Shown here: positions 542-39,383 of the stretch, in pieces | Layout: each line of letters starts with the position of its first letter | Position numbering within the stretch: position 1 is the stretch's first letter | Source: a virus | Lineage: Duplodnaviria; Heunggongvirae; Uroviricota; Caudoviricetes | Direction: 5' to 3' (one strand) | IMG/VR virus record: IMGVR_UViG_2706794697_000014 | DNA length: 45,417 bases | Notes under the pieces: generated by a model | What the model was told of the DNA's origin: nothing | The model's database searches: none | The model's input: the letters and a program-made list of their open reading frames with translations, nothing else | Position numbers and translations under genes: made by a program

Positions 542-1579
542 TTAACGCTTATCCGCCACCAGTTTGAGCGCGTGTTCCAGCACATTAATGTCTGCACCCG
601 CTTTATGGGCATTTTCACTTAAATAACGCCGCCACTGCCGCGCGCCAGGAATACCCTGGAACAAGCCCAACATATGCCGGGTAATATGGCCGAGATACGT
701 CCCCTGGCTGAGTTCACGCTCAATGTACGGATACATGGCGCGCACTACCGCCACCGGATCGGCATCGGTATCCGAGGAACCAAAGATCTCCCGGTCTACC
801 GCCGCCAGAATACCCGGATTCTGATACGCCTCGCGCCCGACCATCACGCCATCCATATGTTGCAGGTGTGCTTTGGCCTCTTCCAGCGACTTGATACCAC
901 CGTTAATCGACATTGTCAGATGCGGAAAGTCACGCTTCAGTTGATACACACGCGGATAATCGAGTGGCGGGATTTCACGGTTTTCTTTCGGGCTTAACCC
1001 CGAAAGCCAGGCTTTACGTGCGTGGATGATAAACATCTCACACTCGCCTTTGCCGGAAACGGTGTTGATGAAATCGCAGAGAAATTCATAGCTGTCCTGG
1101 TCATCGATGCCAATACGCGTTTTCACCGTCACTGGAATCGACACCACATCGCGCATCGCTTTCACGCAGTCGGCAACCAGCTGCGCATTACCCATCAGAC
1201 ACGCACCAAACATGCCGTTCTGCACCCGGTCAGACGGGCAGCCGACATTCAGGTTGATCTCATCATATCCACGCGCTTCTGCCAGCTTCGCACACTGTGC
1301 CAGCGCCGCCGGATCGCTACCGCCGAGTTGCAACGCTACCGGATGTTCTTCTTCACTGTACGCCAGGTAATCACCTTTACCGTGAATAATCGCCCCTGTG
1401 GTCACCATTTCGGTATACAGCAACGTATTGCGGGAAAGCAGACGCAAGAAATAGCGGCAATGTCTGTCCGTCCAGTCGAGCATAGGAGCAATGCTAAACC
1501 GAGAACTCCAGTAAGCGCCAGTTTTTTCAGGCATCACGCTGGTTTGATTAGTTTTCTGTGTTTCAGGATTATCGTGCAT
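542..1579 (-). CDS. dusA: tRNA-dihydrouridine synthase A (host; 5' end adjoins prophage)
   Basis: 345-aa ORF with Dus/TIM-barrel sequence ([28 protein letters not shown]) recognised as E. coli DusA. Confidence 0.9.
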
Positions 1580-1611
1580 TTTTGAACATTTCAGGCTATT
1601 TTTCTCGCGTT

Positions 1612-1647
1612 AGGTTCCCGCACAGGTTCCCACGCTTTATGGGAACC
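1612..1647. promoter_or_regulatory. three rGGTTCCC repeats (two direct, one inverted) in the dusA-int divergent intergenic region
   Basis: aGGTTCCC at 1612-1619 and 1624-1631, inverted GGGAACC at 1641-1647, between divergent start codons. Confidence 0.3.
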
Positions 1648-1667
1648 CGAAATAACGAGGTCGTGTA

Positions 1668-2765
1668 ATGGCGTACTATAACATAGAGAAACGACTAAAA
1701 TCCGATGGCACACCACGCTATCGCTGTAATGTGATTATCAAAGAAAAAGGTGTTATCACTTACAGGGAAAGCAAAACATTCCCTAAACATGCTCATGCCA
1801 AAACATGGGGCGCACAGAAAGTGATGGAATTAGATCTATATGGCATTCCATCATCAAATGCTGTTGACGGACTTACAGTCCGTGACTTACTACACAAATA
1901 TTTAAATGACCCAAATGCCGGAGGTAAAGCAGGCCGTACTAAAAGATATGTGCTGGAACTGCTTATGGATAGTGACATCTCCGCGATCAAACTATCTGAA
2001 CTGACAGAAAATGACGTAATTGAACATTGCAGGCTAAGAAACAACGCTGGTGCAGGCCCAGCAACAGTCAGCCACGATGTTAGTTATCTTGGCAGTGTTC
2101 TGGATGCGGCAAAACCTGTATACGGAATCAATTACACATCAAACCCGGCGAAAAGCGCTCGTCCATATCTACTTAAACTCGGTTTGATTGGTAAATCAAA
2201 CCGTCGTAATCGTAGACCAGCATCTGATGAACTGAACATGCTCATTGAAGGCCTTCAACAACGATCTACTCATAAATGCTCAAAAATTCCGTTCGTTGAT
2301 ATCCTCAAATTTTCTGTGTGGTCCTGTATGCGAATCGGAGAAGTATGCCGGTTACGATGGGAAGATCTCGACCAGGAACAAAAATCTATACTAGTAAGAG
2401 ACAGGAAAGATCCACGTAAAAAGGAAGGCAACCATATGAAAGTTGCCTTGCTTGGGGAAGCCTGGGATATCGTCCAGCGACAACCCAAAAAATCAGAATT
2501 CATTTTTCCATATAACAGCACTTCTGTTACCGCAGGATTTCAGAGGGTAAGAAGCAAATTAGGTATTAAAGATCTGAGATACCATGATTTGCGTAGAGAA
2601 GGGGCAAGTCGCTTATTTGAGGCTGGTTTTAGTATTGAGGAAGTCGCTCAGGTTACAGGGCATCGTTCATTAAACGTGCTATGGCAGGTATATACCGAAC
2701 TGTATCCGAAATCTTTACATAATCGTTTTGAAGAACTCCAAAGGAGCAGAAATAAGACCTCTTGA
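1668..2765 (+). CDS. int: tyrosine-type phage integrase (dusA-associated)
   Basis: 365-aa ORF, GAGG RBS 8-11 nt upstream; C-terminal catalytic region (HDLRREGASRLFEAGFSIEEVAQVTGHRS) typical of tyrosine recombinases; divergent from dusA 5' end. Confidence 0.9.
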   Translation: MAYYNIEKRLKSDGTPRYRCNVIIKEKGVITYRESKTFPKHAHAKTWGAQKVMELDLYGIPSSNAVDGLTVRDLLHKYLNDPNAGGKAGRTKRYVLELLMDSDISAIKLSELTENDVIEHCRLRNNAGAGPATVSHDVSYLGSVLDAAKPVYGINYTSNPAKSARPYLLKLGLIGKSNRRNRRPASDELNMLIEGLQQRSTHKCSKIPFVDILKFSVWSCMRIGEVCRLRWEDLDQEQKSILVRDRKDPRKKEGNHMKVALLGEAWDIVQRQPKKSEFIFPYNSTSVTAGFQRVRSKLGIKDLRYHDLRREGASRLFEAGFSIEEVAQVTGHRSLNVLWQVYTELYPKSLHNRFEELQRSRNKTS

Positions 2766-2793
2766 CACTGTTTATCCATACAGTTAAAAATAA

Positions 2794-2813
2794 TACTGTA
2801 TACAAATACAGTG
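2794..2813. promoter_or_regulatory. LexA (SOS) box upstream of dinI-like gene
   Basis: TACTGTATACAAATACAGTG matches CTGT-N8-ACAG consensus, 13 nt upstream of the dinI-like start; possible -35 TTGACA at 2762-2767. Confidence 0.6.
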
Positions 2814-2825
2814 TAGGGGACTTTT

Positions 2826-3074
2826 ATGCGTATTGAAATCTGCATAGCCAAAGAAAAAATGACTAAAATGCCAACCGGTGCTGTGGATGCGTTAAAGGAA
2901 GAATTAACCCGACGCATCAGTAAACGTTATGACGATGTAGAAGTGATCGTAAAAGCCACCAGCAACGATGGCCTTTCTGTTACGCGCACCGCTGATAAAG
3001 ATTCAGCTAAAACTTTTGTTCAGGAGACTCTGAAAGATACCTGGGAGTCTGCTGACGAGTGGTTTGTTCATTAA
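2826..3074 (+). CDS. DinI-like damage-inducible protein
   Basis: 82-aa product [10 protein letters not shown]...[16 protein letters not shown] resembles DinI/MsgA family (C-terminal TWESADxWF); preceded by a LexA box. Confidence 0.8.
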
Positions 3075-3105
3075 GTTCATCATCTCTGGACACCATTCAC
3101 TTGTA

Positions 3106-3135
3106 TTGACTTTAAGATCATTAAATTGTAATAAT
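3106..3135 (+). promoter_or_regulatory. candidate sigma70 promoter for structured leader and TM-RT operon
   Basis: TTGACT (3106-3111), 18-nt spacer, AATAAT (3130-3135) with TG two nt upstream; predicted start about 3141. Confidence 0.3.
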
Positions 3136-3140
3136 TCAAA

Positions 3141-3277
3141 GGGATGGGGCAGGTTTTTCCTCTTGCGCATGCAAGGGCGGCTCTGATAATGAACAGTAAT
3201 ATTTTACTGTTGAGCTTATGCTCACTGATCCTGCCGGGCAGGATGTTCAACGGTTCCAATATATCCTGCCCCTTCCG
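3141..3277 (+). ncRNA. candidate structured non-coding RNA upstream of the RT module (retron msr-msd-like or DRT-type ncRNA)
   Basis: 13-nt inverted repeats GGGATGGGGCAGG (3141-3153) and CCTGCCCCTTCC (3265-3276, 12/13 complementary) flank three internal hairpins: CTTGC-GCAT-GCAAG (3162-3175), AACAGTAA-TATT-TTACTGTT (3192-3211), perfect palindrome ATCCTGCCGGGCAGGAT (3228-3244); no ORF. Confidence 0.3.
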
Positions 3278-3296
3278 CTTTTAAAAAGGATCTTTT

Positions 3297-3848
3297 ATGC
3301 ATGACAATATTTGGTTTACATATAAAGCACGTATCCAAGCGCACCATCGACTAGAATGGCTTGAAAAACACTCTCAATTTATCCTCGTTTGGTATGCTAT
3401 ATTGAGTGCGGTACTTTCAATTGTAACGTTGCGATTTCCAAAGGTTCTAGGAGATAATACAGATGTCGTTGCGGCGATACTTTCAGTGGCTCTACTGGGT
3501 ATTTCTCTGATCGTATCTAACCTAGATTTTCGTGGTCGAGCAATAGCCATGAGAAGGAATTATATTGCACTACAGCGACTCTATTTTGACATTACCACCA
3601 GTCAACAGTTATCTCTTGAACAGAAAGAAAAATATTTTAATTTGCTCAATGAGGTTGAGAATCACCGTGACATAGATGATAAAATTTCAAGGGTAACTCA
3701 AGTTGGACTTAAGACGAGGATCCCCACACAAAAAGAAAAAATAATTGTTATTTTATGGATATTACTTCGAATATTTATTACTGCCGCACTTTATATACTC
3801 CCATTAATATATCTTTGGATTGACTATGACTGCAAGCAGAATTTTTAA
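3297..3848 (+). CDS. small multi-pass membrane protein, putative effector partner of the RT
   Basis: 183-aa ORF, AGGA RBS; hydrophobic segments FILVWYAILSAVLSIVTL, VVAAILSVALLGISLIVSNL, IIVILWILLRIFITAALYILPLIYLWI; AT-rich; overlaps RT start by 23 nt. Confidence 0.7.
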   Translation: MHDNIWFTYKARIQAHHRLEWLEKHSQFILVWYAILSAVLSIVTLRFPKVLGDNTDVVAAILSVALLGISLIVSNLDFRGRAIAMRRNYIALQRLYFDITTSQQLSLEQKEKYFNLLNEVENHRDIDDKISRVTQVGLKTRIPTQKEKIIVILWILLRIFITAALYILPLIYLWIDYDCKQNF

Positions 3849-5196
3849 AAAGTCATTCTCGAAAAAAAATCTTCTAAAAGTATACTCTGAAAAAATCAAA
3901 GAATCAGGAGCGATTGGCATAGATCGGATTCGCCCATCAAAACTTGATTTGACAATAAAAAATGAGATCACTTTCATTTTTGAAAAGGTTAATTCTGGCA
4001 ATTACAAATTTACAGCATATAAAGAAAAATTAATATCTAAAGGCGCTAACTCTACACCCAGACAGATTTCCATACCAACTGCTAGGGACAGAATTACTCT
4101 TAGAGCTCTCTGTGAATGCCTTACGGAAATATATCCTAAGTCCAGATTAAAACTACCACATACAGTAATTGACTCATTGAAAGAAGCATTAAACAACAGT
4201 CTATATGCTGAATATGCAAAAATAGATCTTAAAAGTTTCTATCCTTCAATTGAACATAAATTGATAATTAATGCAATAAAAAATAAAATTAGAAAAAAAG
4301 AAATTAGACAGTTAATAACATCATCATTAATCGTGCCTACTGTAAGTGGAACCACAGGAAGCAAAGGTATCCCTAATAATACCAGAGGAGTACCTCAGGG
4401 ATTAGCGATATCAAACATTTTAGCTGAAATATCACTATCTAATTTCGATGATGAAATCAATAAAATGCATGACATATGGTACATGCGATACGTTGATGAC
4501 ATTCTTATTTTAACACCAAAATATCAAGCAACAAAAATAGCTTCTCATATCATTGATAAGCTTCAATCATTAAATTTAAACCCACATCCATTAAATGAAG
4601 AGAACTCAAAATCCAAAGTAGGCAGCTTGGATGAAAGTTTCAACTTTTTGGGCTACCACATAAAAAATCGAGAATTATTGATAAAACATGAGAGCATTCT
4701 TAGATTTGAGTCATCCTTAGCAAAAATTTTTACTGCATATAGACACGCTCTACTACAAGCTAAAAATAAGCGCGATAAAGAACGAGCTGTTGCATATTGT
4801 CAGTGGAAACTAAATCTTAGAATTACGGGATGTGTGTTTGAAGGTAAACGATTGGGATGGGTATCGTACTTCTCACAAATAACGTCAACAGCTCAACTTC
4901 GAGCTGTTAATCATACGATCAATAATCTTATCCGCCGATTCGGCCTTTCATCAGAAATAAAACCAAAGTCTTTGATTAAAACTTTCTATGAACTCCGCAG
5001 GGGTAGAGCGGAGACTTTTAAATACATACCTAACTTTGACAATCTACATATATCTCAGAAACGAGAAATTGTTTCTATGTGGATAGGGAAAGAGAATGAA
5101 AAAAAACTTAGCAATAGTGAAATAGAGAGAAAATTTAAATTTAAAATTGCGAAATCAGTAAAAGAGCTTGAAGAGGACATTTCAGGGATATCATAG
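3826..5196 (+). CDS. reverse transcriptase (defence-associated/retron-like; family unassigned)
   Basis: RT motifs in translation: ISIPTARDRITLRAL (motif 1-2), KIDLKSFYPSIEH (3), GVPQGLAISNILAEI (4), YMRYVDDILIL with YVDD catalytic box (5), FNFLGYHI (7), thumb-like GKRLGWVSYF; ATG at 3826 within track ORF 3820..5196. Confidence 0.85.
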   Translation: MTASRIFKKSFSKKNLLKVYSEKIKESGAIGIDRIRPSKLDLTIKNEITFIFEKVNSGNYKFTAYKEKLISKGANSTPRQISIPTARDRITLRALCECLTEIYPKSRLKLPHTVIDSLKEALNNSLYAEYAKIDLKSFYPSIEHKLIINAIKNKIRKKEIRQLITSSLIVPTVSGTTGSKGIPNNTRGVPQGLAISNILAEISLSNFDDEINKMHDIWYMRYVDDILILTPKYQATKIASHIIDKLQSLNLNPHPLNEENSKSKVGSLDESFNFLGYHIKNRELLIKHESILRFESSLAKIFTAYRHALLQAKNKRDKERAVAYCQWKLNLRITGCVFEGKRLGWVSYFSQITSTAQLRAVNHTINNLIRRFGLSSEIKPKSLIKTFYELRRGRAETFKYIPNFDNLHISQKREIVSMWIGKENEKKLSNSEIERKFKFKIAKSVKELEEDISGIS

Positions 5197-5308
5197 ATAT
5201 GTAATCCATTAAATCCTTTATATATAAAGCAATAAACACACTATTTAAATTCACAAATCAGCCGCAGTATCCTGCCATGACAAGTTGCTGCGGCATATCA
5301 CAAAACGA

Positions 5309-5893
5309 TTACTCCATAACAGGGACCGCAGGCCACTCAATATCAGGTGCAGTTGATGTATCAACACGGTTCAGCAACACCCGATACTTCTTCCAGGCTT
5401 CCAGCAACGAGTTTTCTTCCTCCGTTGCGATCTCCAGATCTACAGCATCCTGAAGTGGCGCTATATGCTCACTGGCTACCTGCATCAGGCTGTTTTTTGT
5501 TTCTTCCGCCTCCCGGATCCGGAACAGTTTTTCTGCTTCCGTATCCTTCACCCAGGCTGTGCCGTTCCACTTCTGAAACTCCCCTTCCGGGGATAACCAG
5601 GTAACATTTTCCGGTAACGGACCGAGTTCAGAAATAAATAACGCGTCCCCTGACGCTACGTCATAAACCGTTTTACCCCGATGGTCTTCAACGAGATGCC
5701 ACGATGCCTCATCACTGTTGAAAACAGCCACAAAGCCAGCCGGAATATCTGGCGGTGCAATATAGGTACTGTTTGCTGGCAGACCTGTATGAGGCGGAAT
5801 ATATGCGTCACCTTCACCAATAAATTCATTAGTTCCGGTCAGCAGATTATAAATTTTTATGGTCCGTGGTTGTTCACTCATTCTGAATGCCAT
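5309..5893 (-). CDS. tfa: tail fibre assembly protein
   Basis: 194-aa product [18 protein letters not shown]...[10 protein letters not shown] closely matches lambda Tfa as recalled. Confidence 0.9.
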
Positions 5894-8800
5894 TATGCAA
5901 GCCTCACAATATAGTTAAATGCGATGTTTTTGACGGTGTTTTCCGCGTTACCCGCAGCGTTAACGGTGATGGTATGTCCATGTGAACCAATCGCAACGGA
6001 GTGCGTATGAGCACCAATACCGACAGTATGCGCGTGTGCACCTGCAGATGCTGCTGTGCCGGACAGTGAGTGGCTATGATTACCATCTGTACTGGTATTC
6101 GCTAACCACCCCGTAGACATACCTACTGAGCCTTGTACACCCCAGGTATTTTGACCTGAGCTTGTATAACCATATTGATAAGTATCTTTAAAAACACTGG
6201 GGTTAAATCGACGGCCATCTCTATGGCTGTGATTACCAGCTGCATTCGTGCTGCCACTTAAACTATGGGTATGCGCACCAGTGTTATTCGTGGATTTAGT
6301 GCCGTAATCAAACGACGATGTGGTTTTCGTCCCCAAATCCGTACTGGATGCGCTGGCGCTGTGGGTATGCGATTTAATGCCGTCCTGTTCCTGAGACAAT
6401 ACGGCCCGACCACTGGCAGGTTTGCCCTTAATCGTCCAGCCACGCATATCAGGGATCACACCTGACGGATAAACGGCTGCAAGTTTCGGGTAAGCAGATT
6501 TGTCAAAAGTCTGTCCCTGCATCAGGGCATAACCAGACGGAACGGTATCTGATGGCCACGGGATTGGTGCACCGACTGGGTAGCTTTCTGGTGGAAGATT
6601 TTTCGAGGTATAAACTTCTGCCCAGTCTTCCTCAAAACCATAACCGTCTCTTGAAGAACGGTAGAACAGACCACCATTTCTGTAATGCGCCTTCATCTGC
6701 AAGGTCCGGCAACTTCCGACTCCGGTATAGAAGTTAACCAGAATATAGCTGTTGCCAGAGCGGGTGACATTGTAAGCGCCTGATTCGGCATTCCATGGAA
6801 CGCCACCATCCGCATCGGCATATGTATCCGTTGCCCTTCTGGCAAAAGCAGCCACATGCGCGGCGGTTAAAGTAATATCTTTGGAACCATCAAACTCAAC
6901 ACCAGAAACCAGTCTTGGCGTTTGCAGCTTTGTTGCTGTCAATGCGTTACCGTTCAGACTTGCAGACAGTTTGGTTCCAATAACCAGTTCGCCGGTTGCG
7001 TTATCAATAACAAACGGTCTTAATGTATTCCAGCCACCATAAACATCACCTTGATTGGTAAGCAGCAGGTAAGTTTTAGCGCCATCATTACGCCATAATG
7101 CACCATACTCCCCACCTATCATTCGAATCTGATTACCACCACGCGCTACAATTTCGTCTGTGGCAAAAAGTTTTTTGCACGACAAGTTATCGTTAACGAT
7201 TAACGAATGAGACTCATAAAAACCACGCCCACTCTTAAAATCAAGGATAACGTCCGCCGCGATACATTCAGTCGCCGGATTTGTTGCCCCAAACTTATAG
7301 GTCGTATCATTAACAACGAGATCAGCACCAGGTGCGGATATTGACAGGCCATCTTCGAGAAACGCAAAAACAGGGAAAGCAGCGCCATCAACATAGAACA
7401 CAGAGCGCAAATCATCGCCCTTATTACTCATCATTATTGAGTGGATGGCTCGTTCATTGTTTTGATATTGCCAGAACATTCCATAAGCATAACGCCCCCT
7501 GTCAGTCCAGCCACCAGGCATAACAAATCCGTTAAACTCGCAGTTATTCATCGGATCGCCTGCGATTCGCGTTGCCGTGGTGATAATGACCCTTGATGCC
7601 AGTTCGCTTACTGAGCCAGCAGAACGCATAACAACAACAGGGTAATATTTTCCAGATGTTGCACCTGCAGGAGCGTTAACCCGCACATAACGCATACCAC
7701 GCTTATCAGCAAAGTCTGTTTTACTGACCGCGTTAATGTTGTTCAGGAAGCGTCCCTTATCGGGTATATCAGCGCCGTTCTGGTCTTTCTGCAGACGTTT
7801 CTCAGCATTGTCATTGGCTGCTTTTACTGCCTTTGGCGTTGCCGCCAGCGTTTCAGACGTGCTATTAGTCGCACTACTGAGCTGTACTATCCCCTTTTTC
7901 GTCGTGCTCGCATCCTCAAGCGCCACGGCGGATGCAATATCCTCTGCACGTTTTGCCGCTGTCTCGGCGCGCGTTGCCGCGGATTCCGCCGTACTTTTGC
8001 TCTGTGCTGCCGCCGTCGCACTGCCAGCAGCCTCTGTCGCCTTCGTGGATGCTGTCGTGGCGCTGCCCTTCGCTGCGGACGCTTGTCTGGTCGCCTCATC
8101 TTTTGAAGCAGACGCCGATGATGCCGATGACGCCGCCGAACTGGCGGACGATGCGGCAGCCGTTTTTGAGGATTCTGCGCTGGTCTCCGACGCTTTCGCG
8201 TTCGTCTCCGATGTCTTCGCTGCGGAAGCAGACCTCGCTGCTGCACTGGCCTGTTCAGTGGCTTCGCCAGCCTTCGTTGTGGCTGTTGAAGCGGACGATG
8301 CGGCGCTTTCTGCCGATTTTCCGGCGGCGCTAGCACTGGCTGAGGCCTGCCCGGCACTTGTTGACGCTGCACTGGCAGACGACGCAGCCGCTGTTTTTGA
8401 GCCTGCTGCTGCGGAGGCACTCTGTGCTGCTGCCGTTTCAGAGGACTTAGCGTTTGTCTCAGACGTCTTTGCCGCCTTCGCGGAATTTCCTGCCGCCGTT
8501 GCCGAGGAAGCGGCATTACTGGCGCTCGAAGCTGCGCTCGTTTCTGATAATTTTGCCGCCTCTTTTGAAGCCGACGCATCTCTGGCTGAGGTGGCTGCTT
8601 CTGACGCTTTCGTGGTCGCGGTGGATGCAGAAGTGGCAGCTGATTGTTGTGACGCTGCCGCATTCGTTTCTGACGTTTTCGCCGCACCGGCTGATGTGCT
8701 GGCATCGCTGGCTGATTTCTTCGCGGCTGCCGTGTTCTGTGCCACCGCGGACGCGTTACGCGCCACCTCTTCCACCATCAGTTCAAAGCGGCGCAGTGCC

Positions 8801-9108
8801 TCAGGACGGGCATCATCCTCCGTCATGGCACCGAGAAAATCATTCAGCGTACCGGGTCGGGAATCTTCATACACGGTGATGGTCCCGGCATGTGACGGCG
8901 GGAATCCTTCCACCAACAGAATAACGCTGTACTGACCGTACTCAACGTCCATGCTGTAACGCCCGGCTTCATCCGGATTTTCTGAGGCCAGCGTGTTCAC
9001 CACCACCGTGGTGCTGTTACGTTTTGCTTTCAGCTGGATTGTGCAGTTCTGTACCGGTTTTCCTGTGCCGTCTTTCAGTACACCTGAAATCTTTACTGCC
9101 ATATTCAC
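5893..9108 (-). CDS. stf: side tail fibre protein (mosaic)
   Basis: 1071-aa ORF; N-terminus [26 protein letters not shown] and C-terminus ...[28 protein letters not shown] match lambda Stf; Ala/Ser/Thr-rich repeats and His-rich GAHTHS repeats. Confidence 0.9.
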
Positions 9109-9112
9109 CCCA

Positions 9113-9140
9113 CAAAAAAGCCCGCCTGAACCGGCGGGCT
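9113..9140 (-). terminator. intrinsic terminator downstream of lom
   Basis: stem AGCCCGCC/GGCGGGCT, loop TGAACC, followed on minus strand by T6. Confidence 0.5.
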
Positions 9141-9166
9141 GTCATAACACTGTGTTACCTGGCTAA

Positions 9167-9766
9167 TCAGAATTTATAACCGACACCCACGATGAAACCG
9201 TCAGTGCGCCAGTCGCCACTGCCGGAGCCTTCATAAGCAATATCAATGGCCACGGATTCGGTCGGGTTAAACTGCACGCCAGCTCCCCACGCCAGAGACG
9301 TGTTGCTGTGGCGACCGTCATCACTTCCGGTCAGCACATCGTGCGTTTTCCCCTTGTTGTCAGTTACGCGGAGATAATCCCCGGAGAAAGTCGACACACG
9401 GCTGTAAGCCACACCCGCCATCGCATACGCGCTGAACCATTCATTCACGCGCACAGACGGCCCCGCCATTACGCTGAACCAGCGGTTACGAACGGAATCT
9501 TCATGCCAGCGGGTATCGCTGTAACGGGTCAGCTGGCGATTCTTGTCTCCTGCATAGCTGAATGACGTCACCAGCCCCAGTGTGTCCGTAAACTCATAAC
9601 GGTATTTCACGTTAATCCCGTTCAGATCATCACTGCCGGGAACGTTGGTCCGGGCATGAAGATACCCCGCGCTCAGCGTGGACTGATGTTCAGACGCCCA
9701 TGCAGGCGCACCGGATACGGCCAGACAAATGGCTGCGGACAAAATTGCTGCACAAACTTTACGCAT
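9167..9766 (-). CDS. lom: Lom/Ail/PagC-family outer membrane protein
   Basis: 199-aa product with signal peptide MRKVCAAILSAAICLAVSGAPAWA and C-terminal beta-barrel ending GVGYKF; flanked by terminators. Confidence 0.85.
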   Translation of the reverse strand: MRKVCAAILSAAICLAVSGAPAWASEHQSTLSAGYLHARTNVPGSDDLNGINVKYRYEFTDTLGLVTSFSYAGDKNRQLTRYSDTRWHEDSVRNRWFSVMAGPSVRVNEWFSAYAMAGVAYSRVSTFSGDYLRVTDNKGKTHDVLTGSDDGRHSNTSLAWGAGVQFNPTESVAIDIAYEGSGSGDWRTDGFIVGVGYKF

Positions 9767-38554: not shown

Positions 38555-39383
38555 GACGATGCCCTCCGCTGATATTCAGGAGACGGTGAATATGAAAATT
38601 AGCCTTATCCGCCAGACGAATACGTTCAGCTTGCAAGTTAAGAAGGGTTTCTACCAGAACCTGATGTGCCTGCGGATCCGAAAGAGTTACCTTGCGCAGA
38701 GCACGTAGTGCAGTTGTTACATAACTGAGTTTATGTAAGTCTTCATCATTCAGACGAGTGAGGGCTGGGACAGTAGCCATGATGGCAGCCTCCTTGATCG
38801 GTGAAATACTTCCACCACCGGAAACGCCAATTTCGCTGGTGGTGAACTGAACGGGGTTGGCGTAACCGGTGATCAAGGAAACCGGCGCATCTTTCGATGC
38901 CCCCGCCCAGCCCACCATAACTTTGATGTGAGCAAATGCGGACGATAAAAAAGACGCTGGCGCGTCATATATCGCCTTGATCAATTCCAGGACGCCAATC
39001 CCGGCACCCGCTTTATAAGGTGCCTGAACAGTGTAACGTCCCGGAATGGCAGAATCAATGTGCTGGTGGTCCTTCACACTCAACAAAATCACGCCTGAAT
39101 TTCCACAAAGGACTAAAGCACTCATGCGGGTAGTCTTTGCGAAGATAGATAACGCGCTGTGTTTCTGGCTCCCAACGAATAACATGAACATAAAGTCCTC
39201 TTCCGTCACGAAACCAGCGGTTAAGTTCCTGCACAACTCGCCCCCCACAGTCAGGTAAAGTTCTCTGTGGTTACTTACAGCCAGGTGATTTGGTAATCTG
39301 CATTCATGCCGTAACAACAGGTGTTCAGCGACGCTGACCACCAGCTGTTGCGACAAACGGTTATTTGCCGTTAAACTGTTCAT
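38547..39383 (-). CDS. hypothetical early protein
   Basis: 278-aa ORF in early-right operon; no motif I can name. Confidence 0.45.
   Translation of the reverse strand: MNSLTANNRLSQQLVVSVAEHLLLRHECRLPNHLAVSNHRELYLTVGGELCRNLTAGFVTEEDFMFMLFVGSQKHSALSIFAKTTRMSALVLCGNSGVILLSVKDHQHIDSAIPGRYTVQAPYKAGAGIGVLELIKAIYDAPASFLSSAFAHIKVMVGWAGASKDAPVSLITGYANPVQFTTSEIGVSGGGSISPIKEAAIMATVPALTRLNDEDLHKLSYVTTALRALRKVTLSDPQAHQVLVETLLNLQAERIRLADKANFHIHRLLNISGGHRHA

Follow-up and report, generated by a model that had tools for sequence, protein, structure and literature searches.

A dusA-adjacent lambdoid prophage cassette that is very probably an intact DRT10 (UG17) defence system allelic to Eco3DRT10

The cassette and its assignment

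The window analysed in this work is the complete 45,417-nt stretch of the viral record IMGVR_UViG_2706794697_000014 (Caudoviricetes), which harbours, between a DinI-like gene and tfa, a cassette (positions 3106-5196) composed of a promoter-like site, a non-coding RNA (ncRNA) leader, a SLATT gene and a reverse transcriptase (RT) gene (Table 1). With a probability of about 0.93, the cassette constitutes an intact DRT10 (UG17) defence system and a natural allele of the characterised Eco3DRT10, the best-studied member of this family. The assignment follows from the fact that a UG17 RT, a SLATT protein and an ncRNA together define DRT10, and in the window allele every DRT10 part was found to be present and intact, as judged by homology, by RNA covariation and by a template pattern residing in the right place. 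The initial annotation, made from the sequence without database searches, had proposed an RT-based anti-phage system of unassigned family. Its first half agrees with experiments reported for an allele that is about 98% identical (PMC12632851; 10.64898/2026.06.29.735271); its second half has to be given up, as the RT is a full-length UG17 protein, its partner belongs to SLATT_5/RTasSLATT and the system is DRT10. Those properties that were taken to hinder placement, namely an effector gene located between leader and RT, a long RT and the lack of a nitrilase, are the very layout by which DRT10 is defined.

A catalogue of 2022 lists UG17 RTs accompanied by SLATT among the class 2 UG/Abi RTs and predicts a role in defence for them (PMC9226505). 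A preprint of October 2025 (PMC12632851) then showed defence by UG17/SLATT experimentally and introduced the name DRT10; two further preprints followed in 2026. The system is hence already known and the window adds no new kind of system: the effector and template roles had been read correctly from the sequence, whereas the novelty of the family fell away. What is new here is a detail, i.e., a natural template variant, whereby the commonest natural template among the fetched loci is not the one used in laboratory work. DRT10 as such is notable in that a compact, telomerase-like enzyme serves immunity by producing protein-linked tandem-repeat DNA.

Table 1. Positions of the cassette parts and of the neighbouring genes in the window
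Feature	Position	Strand	Remarks
Sigma-70-type promoter-like site	3106-3135	+	TTGACT, 18-nt spacer, TG-extended AATAAT; 10/12 matches
Predicted DRT10 ncRNA	3142-3278	+	137 nt, five stem-loops (basal stem plus four)
ncRNA stem-loop (SL) 1, basal stem	3142-3153 pairs with 3265-3276		
ncRNA SL2	3158-3166 pairs with 3171-3180		
ncRNA Loop A	3181-3192		
ncRNA SL3	3192-3199 pairs with 3204-3211		
ncRNA SL4	3212-3215 pairs with 3220-3223		
ncRNA SL5	3228-3234 pairs with 3238-3244		
ncRNA Loop B, template loop	3245-3264		
Predicted template A-B, CAAC-GGUUC	3248-3256	+	ncRNA nt 107-115; by positional homology to the Eco3DRT10 template CAAU-GAUUC
Realignment segment A', CAAU	3257-3260	+	nt 116-119; includes C116, where priming was reported
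SLATT_5 membrane protein, effector partner	3297-3848	+	183 aa
UG17 (DRT10) reverse transcriptase	3826-5196	+	
YVDD catalytic box	4489-4500	+	RT residues 222-225
Codon of Ser456, predicted protein-priming residue	5191-5193	+	RT ends ...ELEEDISGIS
dusA	542-1579	-	Host DNA, window start
Tyrosine integrase	1668-2765	+	Between dusA and the DinI-like gene
DinI-like gene	2826-3074		Pfam DinI, E 1e-19
tfa	5309-5893	-	Caudo_TAP, E 7e-45
Tail-fibre gene	5893-9108	-	

The reverse transcriptase

The RT comprises 456 aa when read from the ATG at 3826 and 458 aa when read from a TTG at 3820; the open reading frame (ORF) and its end at 5196 had been placed correctly by the initial annotation, its length of 457 aa had not. 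RVT_1 (Pfam) spans residues 72-279 (E 7e-21) and is the sole Pfam domain above cut-off, which agrees with the earlier statement that no nitrilase is fused to the RT. A C-terminal extension is present as described, with about 177 residues beyond RVT_1. The motifs recognised at first sight were all located, i.e., YVDD, QGLAISN at residue 191 and GWVSYF at residue 344. Among the PADLOC profiles, RT_UG17 was found to match the protein over its entire length (model positions 1-429 of 429) with 526.6 bits (E 1.1e-158). The runner-up was Drt3a with 129.5 bits, so that the UG17 score is four times that of any other RT profile; Drt9 reached 69 bits and RT_UG5-nitrilase 52 bits, over the RT core only. 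The assignment to UG17 is a profile match, made without a tree.

Two sites known to be essential in Eco3DRT10 are strictly kept. The YVDD box is invariant in all 17 homologous RTs that were compared, and its exchange to YVAA in Eco3DRT10 was reported to abolish defence (PMC12632851). The C-terminal signature ELEEDI-x-x-x-S, with Ser as the last residue, is likewise kept in 17 of the 17 homologs. In Eco3DRT10, S456 was identified as the priming residue and variant S456A neither synthesised complementary DNA (cDNA) nor conferred defence (PMC12632851). The conserved terminal Ser of the window RT fits priming by a serine located where the C-terminal helix ends.

That the gene belongs to another kind of RT element, i.e., to a retron, a group II intron or maturase, a diversity-generating retroelement or one of the class 2 systems DRT2, DRT3 and DRT9, is extremely unlikely. 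NCBIfam does return related models, these being the group II RT/maturase TIGR04416 (144 bits), Drt3a (113 bits) and the retron St85 RT (58 bits), but against cut-offs of 300, 200 and 235 bits, respectively. All rival profiles (group II intron, Drt3a, Drt2 and retron) thus remain below their curated cut-offs, whereas UG17 stands far ahead and is matched end to end with 526 bits. A sequence search of the PDB with the RT returned a group II intron RT as the top solved structure (E 4e-14), and the DRT9 ncRNA was said to resemble that of DRT10 (PMC12632851); both observations would be in line with a different element.

The candidates were also assessed one by one. A retron was rejected on the basis of the St85 score, the lack of any Rfam retron RNA and the leader, which matches the DRT10 covariance model instead (see below). 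For a group II intron, the TIGR04416 score is joined by a Pfam GIIM match below cut-off (E 0.029), and Rfam revealed no intron RNA. A search for TR/VR-type repeat pairs within positions 1500-9200 revealed none, but just internal repeats of the tail-fibre gene and weak matches, and hence a diversity-generating retroelement was rejected; intron RNA domains and a TR/VR pair had been named in the initial annotation as findings that would speak against a defence system. DRT1 (UG1)/UG5 was rejected as no nitrilase (C-N hydrolase) Pfam domain scored above cut-off and RT_UG5-nitrilase did so poorly. DRT9 and DRT3 were rejected as the template loop contains neither a poly-U tract (DRT9) nor an ACACAC tract (DRT3).

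The SLATT membrane protein

The ORF upstream of the RT gene encodes a protein with hydrophobic segments at residues ~27-47, ~56-76 and ~148-173, and its TAA stop codon lies 23 nt past the ATG of the RT; its length, the three helices and the overlap had all been described accurately before. Pfam SLATT_5 (E 1.3e-28; 100 bits, cut-off 29.5) and NCBIfam SLATT_5 (136 bits, cut-off 60) both identify the protein, as does the PADLOC model for RT-associated SLATT proteins, RTasSLATT (E 1.5e-56). The earlier proposal that the membrane protein is the effector partner matches the published system of the ~98% identical allele, and damage of the membrane by the window SLATT is inferred from that analogy. 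A SLATT gene is located upstream of the RT gene in every related locus for which upstream sequence was available. The order SLATT-RT, the gene overlap and the Pseudomonadota host agree with the published description of UG17-A.

The ncRNA leader

The leader had been noticed as a structured element of about 135 nt. With 137 nt, it folds with a minimum free energy of -57.2 kcal/mol (z -4.58), and none of 200 shuffled sequences folds as well. An alignment of the 17 homologs, which covers six genera (Escherichia, Xenorhabdus, Buttiauxella, Photorhabdus, Pseudomonas and Stutzerimonas), revealed a consensus fold of 35 pairs in five helices, in which 98.5% of the alignment cells are paired. Compensatory double changes occur at 15 of these 35 pairs, with at least one in each helix. 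As a control, none of 500 shuffles reached the observed values, and sliding the pairing partners left about 50% paired. The 14 full loci from outside E. coli (Xenorhabdus, Buttiauxella, Photorhabdus, Pseudomonas and Stutzerimonas; RT identity 57-83%) all possess the SLATT gene and the conserved leader upstream. A covariance model built from these 14 sequences alone yields a single match in the 45-kb window, at 3142-3279 on the plus strand (123.8 bits, E 3e-28), and recovers the ncRNA in 23 of 23 loci on IMG/VR viral contigs with upstream sequence. Numbering of the ncRNA from position 3142 reproduces the published Eco3 positions U43, G44, G111, C116, A117 and U119. The two alternatives considered at first for the leader, RT template or scaffold, turn out to apply jointly, as both roles were documented for the published ~98% identical allele.

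The leader had also been called free of ORFs, which holds loosely: a mechanical ORF of 46 aa (3144-3284) overlaps it, and its conservation pattern is RNA-like. Rfam 15, searched at the gathering threshold and up to E 10, holds no family for the leader and returned only a chance-level match to MEG8; this release does not include the DRT10 ncRNA. The promoter-like sequence recognised in the initial annotation is identical in four E. coli alleles. Transcription from this site would start about 6-7 nt downstream of it, at the predicted 5' end of the ncRNA. Between the 3' end of the ncRNA and the SLATT ATG reside 18 nt (3279-3296), which include a U-run and the Shine-Dalgarno-like sequence AAAGGA. 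A processing or termination step yielding a discrete ncRNA is not evident from the sequence.

Comparison with Eco3DRT10 and the predicted cDNA repeat

Eco3DRT10, the homolog used for RNA immunoprecipitation sequencing and biochemistry (PMC12632851; Tang et al. 2025) as well as for cryo-electron microscopy (cryo-EM; 10.64898/2026.06.29.735271; Ramirez et al. 2026), originates from E. coli 703491 (RT OKX54664.1). Its NCBI record carries two additional N-terminal residues, S458 therein being S456 (PMC12632851), and this two-residue gap in numbering equals the TTG/ATG start ambiguity of the window RT. Both systems share the order ncRNA, SLATT, RT, with an RT of 456 aa ending in Ser456, a SLATT protein of 183 aa and an ncRNA of 137 nt. 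Between the RTs, 8 residues differ among the 399 visible in Table S1 of PMC12632851 (about 98% identity), and between the SLATT proteins 5 of 183 (97% identity). The ncRNAs were compared via the ETEC4067 allele (locus L003), whose RT equals that of Eco3 over the visible part and whose leader, aligning to that of the window without gaps, carries CAATGATTCCAAT, i.e., the published Eco3 template plus A' (PMC12632851). On this basis, 3 of 137 nt differ (98% identity).

Two of these three differences lie in the 9-nt template. In Eco3DRT10, the A-B segment CAAU-GAUUC (nt 107-115) and A' (CAAU) were found to specify the tandem repeat 5'-GAATCATTG-3', primed opposite C116 on Ser456 (PMC12632851; 10.64898/2026.06.29.735271). 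The window carries CAACGGUUC-CAAU where Eco3 carries CAAUGAUUC-CAAU, the substitutions being U110C and A112G, and its pattern CAAC-GGUUC-CAAU begins 3 nt after SL5, at 3248-3260. Applying the published A-B-A' rules to this template, the window allele is predicted to produce the 9-nt cDNA repeat 5'-GAACCGTTG-3'. Upon realignment, a dG:rU wobble would arise at the fourth base, so that an A-A' identity of 3 nt plus a G:U wobble, together with an additional GUUC/GUUC repeat of period 8, sets the window apart from Eco3. In mutagenesis of the Eco3 system, the fourth position and all of B tolerated changes, and an A-A' identity of 3 nt was enough (PMC12632851). Among the 17 homologs, CAA is invariant at both A and A', B varies, the period is 9 or 10 and the pattern resides immediately 3' of SL5.

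Template alleles were tabulated on the fetched loci. Within this sample, the window template is the commonest (13 loci, as compared to 3 with the Eco3 template), and Xenorhabdus possesses the same A-B-A' as the window. Eco3-type and MS6193-type leaders each differ from that of the window at 3 positions. While E. coli-type loci are otherwise 96-100% identical, their ncRNA differences include templating bases (CAACGGTTC, CAATGATTC), and more distant loci carry CAACGATTC as template bases. One might reason that the sequence or register of the repeat is under diversifying selection, e.g., for escape from phage factors which bind or degrade a particular repeat DNA, an idea that we regard as unlikely. 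If it held true, the common window allele would make a product mixture unlike that of the laboratory Eco3 system.

Other members of the family resemble the window system in the same way. Eco1DRT10, Eco2DRT10 and the UG17-A system of Escherichia sp. E3659 (Sanchez-Nieto et al. 2026) are likewise tripartite (ncRNA, SLATT, RT), they likewise form protein-primed tandem-repeat cDNA from an A-B-A' template, and in the prevailing arrangement SLATT and RT are coupled translationally. They differ in their ncRNA models, with six stem-loops in Eco1 and E3659 and a length of 185 nt in Eco2, in their repeats, e.g., the 8-nt AATCGTGT and the 7-nt AGTAATA, and, for Eco1, in priming on a tyrosine (Y444). DRT9 (UG28) and DRT3 (UG3+UG8) also employ class 2 UG RTs, ncRNA templates and repetitive DNA products within a related ncRNA architecture; DRT9 is protein-primed as well, and SLATT-type partners occur. 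However, DRT9 forms poly-dA from a poly-U template and assembles into a hexamer, and DRT3 forms poly(dTdG). With telomerase (TERT plus telomerase RNA), DRT10 shares a short internal RNA template, a structured 5' boundary, an alignment segment and repeat-addition processivity, whereas telomerase primes on the 3' end of the chromosome instead of a protein serine, is much larger and serves genome maintenance instead of defence. The evolutionary connection of DRT10 with telomerase was drawn by the authors of the DRT10 work, and the window system is not claimed here to be a member of the telomerases.

Proposed mechanism and activity of the window allele

The mechanism outlined in the following was taken from the ~98% identical Eco3DRT10 and applies to the window allele by analogy. 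Two RT monomers would bind one ncRNA, and the RT would use the hydroxyl group of the serine at its own C-terminus as primer, starting DNA synthesis opposite C116. Copying of the short A-B template of Loop B would then proceed as far as a boundary set by SL5, whereupon the nascent DNA would unpair and re-pair with the A' segment, allowing the cycle to repeat. The expected product is a kilobase-long single-stranded tandem-repeat DNA that stays covalently attached to the RT. RT catalysis, ncRNA and SLATT would all be needed for defence. As to the control of SLATT by the repeat DNA, two models were published: the DNA may hold a toxic SLATT pore in check until infection reduces the amount of DNA, or phage SSB-like proteins may disturb the degradation of the DNA by host ExoI (SbcB), such that DNA accumulates and SLATT becomes activated. 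Either way, membrane damage and abortive infection would result.

These steps were derived from several reports. Eco3DRT10 was shown to provide defence against BASEL phages in a manner that depends on YVDD, SLATT, the ncRNA and S456, and was found to contain a 137-nt RT-bound ncRNA and, in covalent linkage to the RT, single-stranded tandem-repeat DNA of kilobase length (PMC12632851). Defence dependent on RT, ncRNA and SLATT is established for the Eco1, Eco2 and Eco3 DRT10 systems and for that of E3659. Cryo-EM identified an RT:ncRNA stoichiometry of 2:1 and priming at C116, whereby Loop B gives rise to the processive product and Loop A to short abortive products only (10.64898/2026.06.29.735271). 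Another DRT10 homolog was reported to be toxic when the ExoI exonuclease SbcB is missing, and its activation requires a phage SSB-like protein (10.64898/2026.04.29.721553).

By analogy with these systems, the window allele is inferred to be active. The only live alternative is an inactive allele, i.e., a decayed or silent DRT10 copy disabled by its template substitutions or by the 8 RT and 5 SLATT changes, which we consider very unlikely. It is true that two template bases, of which one belongs to segment A, deviate from the tested sequence, and that insertion sequence (IS) elements found in E. coli 510016 and on contig L044 document that the cassette can be lost or disturbed. However, both ORFs are of full length, and neither YVDD nor the terminal Ser nor any of the five ncRNA helices is disrupted; the window template is, as described above, the prevailing one among the fetched loci and recurs in another genus; and the exact RT is present on 732 contigs and the exact SLATT protein on at least 1000, which fits purifying selection.

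Several points weigh against the assignment of the locus as an intact, Eco3-like DRT10 system or against parts of it. U110C and A112G together cut the perfect A-A' identity from 4 to 3 nt, and A112G additionally creates a second direct repeat (GUUC...GUUC, period 8), which overlaps the CAA/CAA register within the same loop; length and precision of the window repeat could hence differ from the prediction. The promoter-like site is a consensus match only and on its own merely suggestive, as such sites are not enriched in the AT-rich region (13 observed, 10.6 expected). Given the 18-nt gap, the SLATT-RT mRNA has to start at, upstream of or inside the ncRNA. Finally, the two published studies report opposite changes of the cDNA level upon infection (PMC12632851 versus 10.64898/2026.04.29.721553).

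Prophage context and distribution

The DRT10 cassette is accessory cargo of a lambdoid prophage that is integrated beside dusA, and it sits at the integrase-proximal end of this prophage. The start of the integrase gene lies 89 nt from the dusA start codon, which is the arrangement of dusA-targeting integrases. As noted in the initial annotation, the SLATT-RT pair is AT-rich, with a GC content of 0.29-0.37 over positions 3600-5200 as compared to 0.45-0.63 in the tail genes, and the identity of the flanking genes as DinI-like and tfa was confirmed by Pfam. The same cassette is found in prfC-adjacent lambdoid prophages, there without an adjoining integrase, and comparison of related loci revealed adjacency to DinI to be restricted to the E. 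coli prophage lineage. Deletion of a neighbouring recombinase was reported to leave defence unchanged (PMC12632851). Considering these three findings, both the integrase and the DinI-like gene were rejected as components and placed outside the system.

Of 5426 complete E. coli genomes, 188 carry the 2.15-kb module at a threshold of 95% identity or more, in every case chromosomally, and in E. coli O25b:H4 (NZ_CP015085.1) the identity is 100%. The GenBank phage collection, searched with megablast sensitivity, yielded no match to the module, which was seen in prophages and on IMG/VR contigs. Eco3-type DRT10 is hence a widespread E. coli prophage cargo, with a terminal position in lambdoid prophages that are integrated at either dusA or prfC. 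In E. coli 510016 (NZ_CP025851.1), IS1A splits the SLATT gene, and on the IMG/VR contig L044 an insertion at 931-2204 with two putative transposase-like ORFs on the minus strand resides between the DinI-like gene and the ncRNA promoter. Such insertions may reflect a cost of carrying the system.

Further features of the prophage were encountered alongside. Rfam reports the candidate small RNA IS009 at 5352-5550 on the minus strand (224.6 bits, gathering score 117), wholly within the tfa coding sequence; the match is probably explained by a family that was itself derived from prophage tfa sequence, and not by a separate RNA gene. The tail-fibre protein contains a long low-complexity stretch rich in Ala, Ser and Thr, encoded at 7736-8935 (GC content 0.60-0.63), a region which holds internal direct repeats of ~28 nt and a mechanical ORF of 399 aa on the opposite strand. 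In the early region of the prophage, a C4 antisense RNA (38835-38922, minus strand, 82 bits) adjoins isrK (38947-39023, minus strand, 64 bits), both scoring above their gathering scores in Rfam, and this pair points to a module for antisense control of the P1/P7 type, acting on an anti-repressor or a late-gene regulator.

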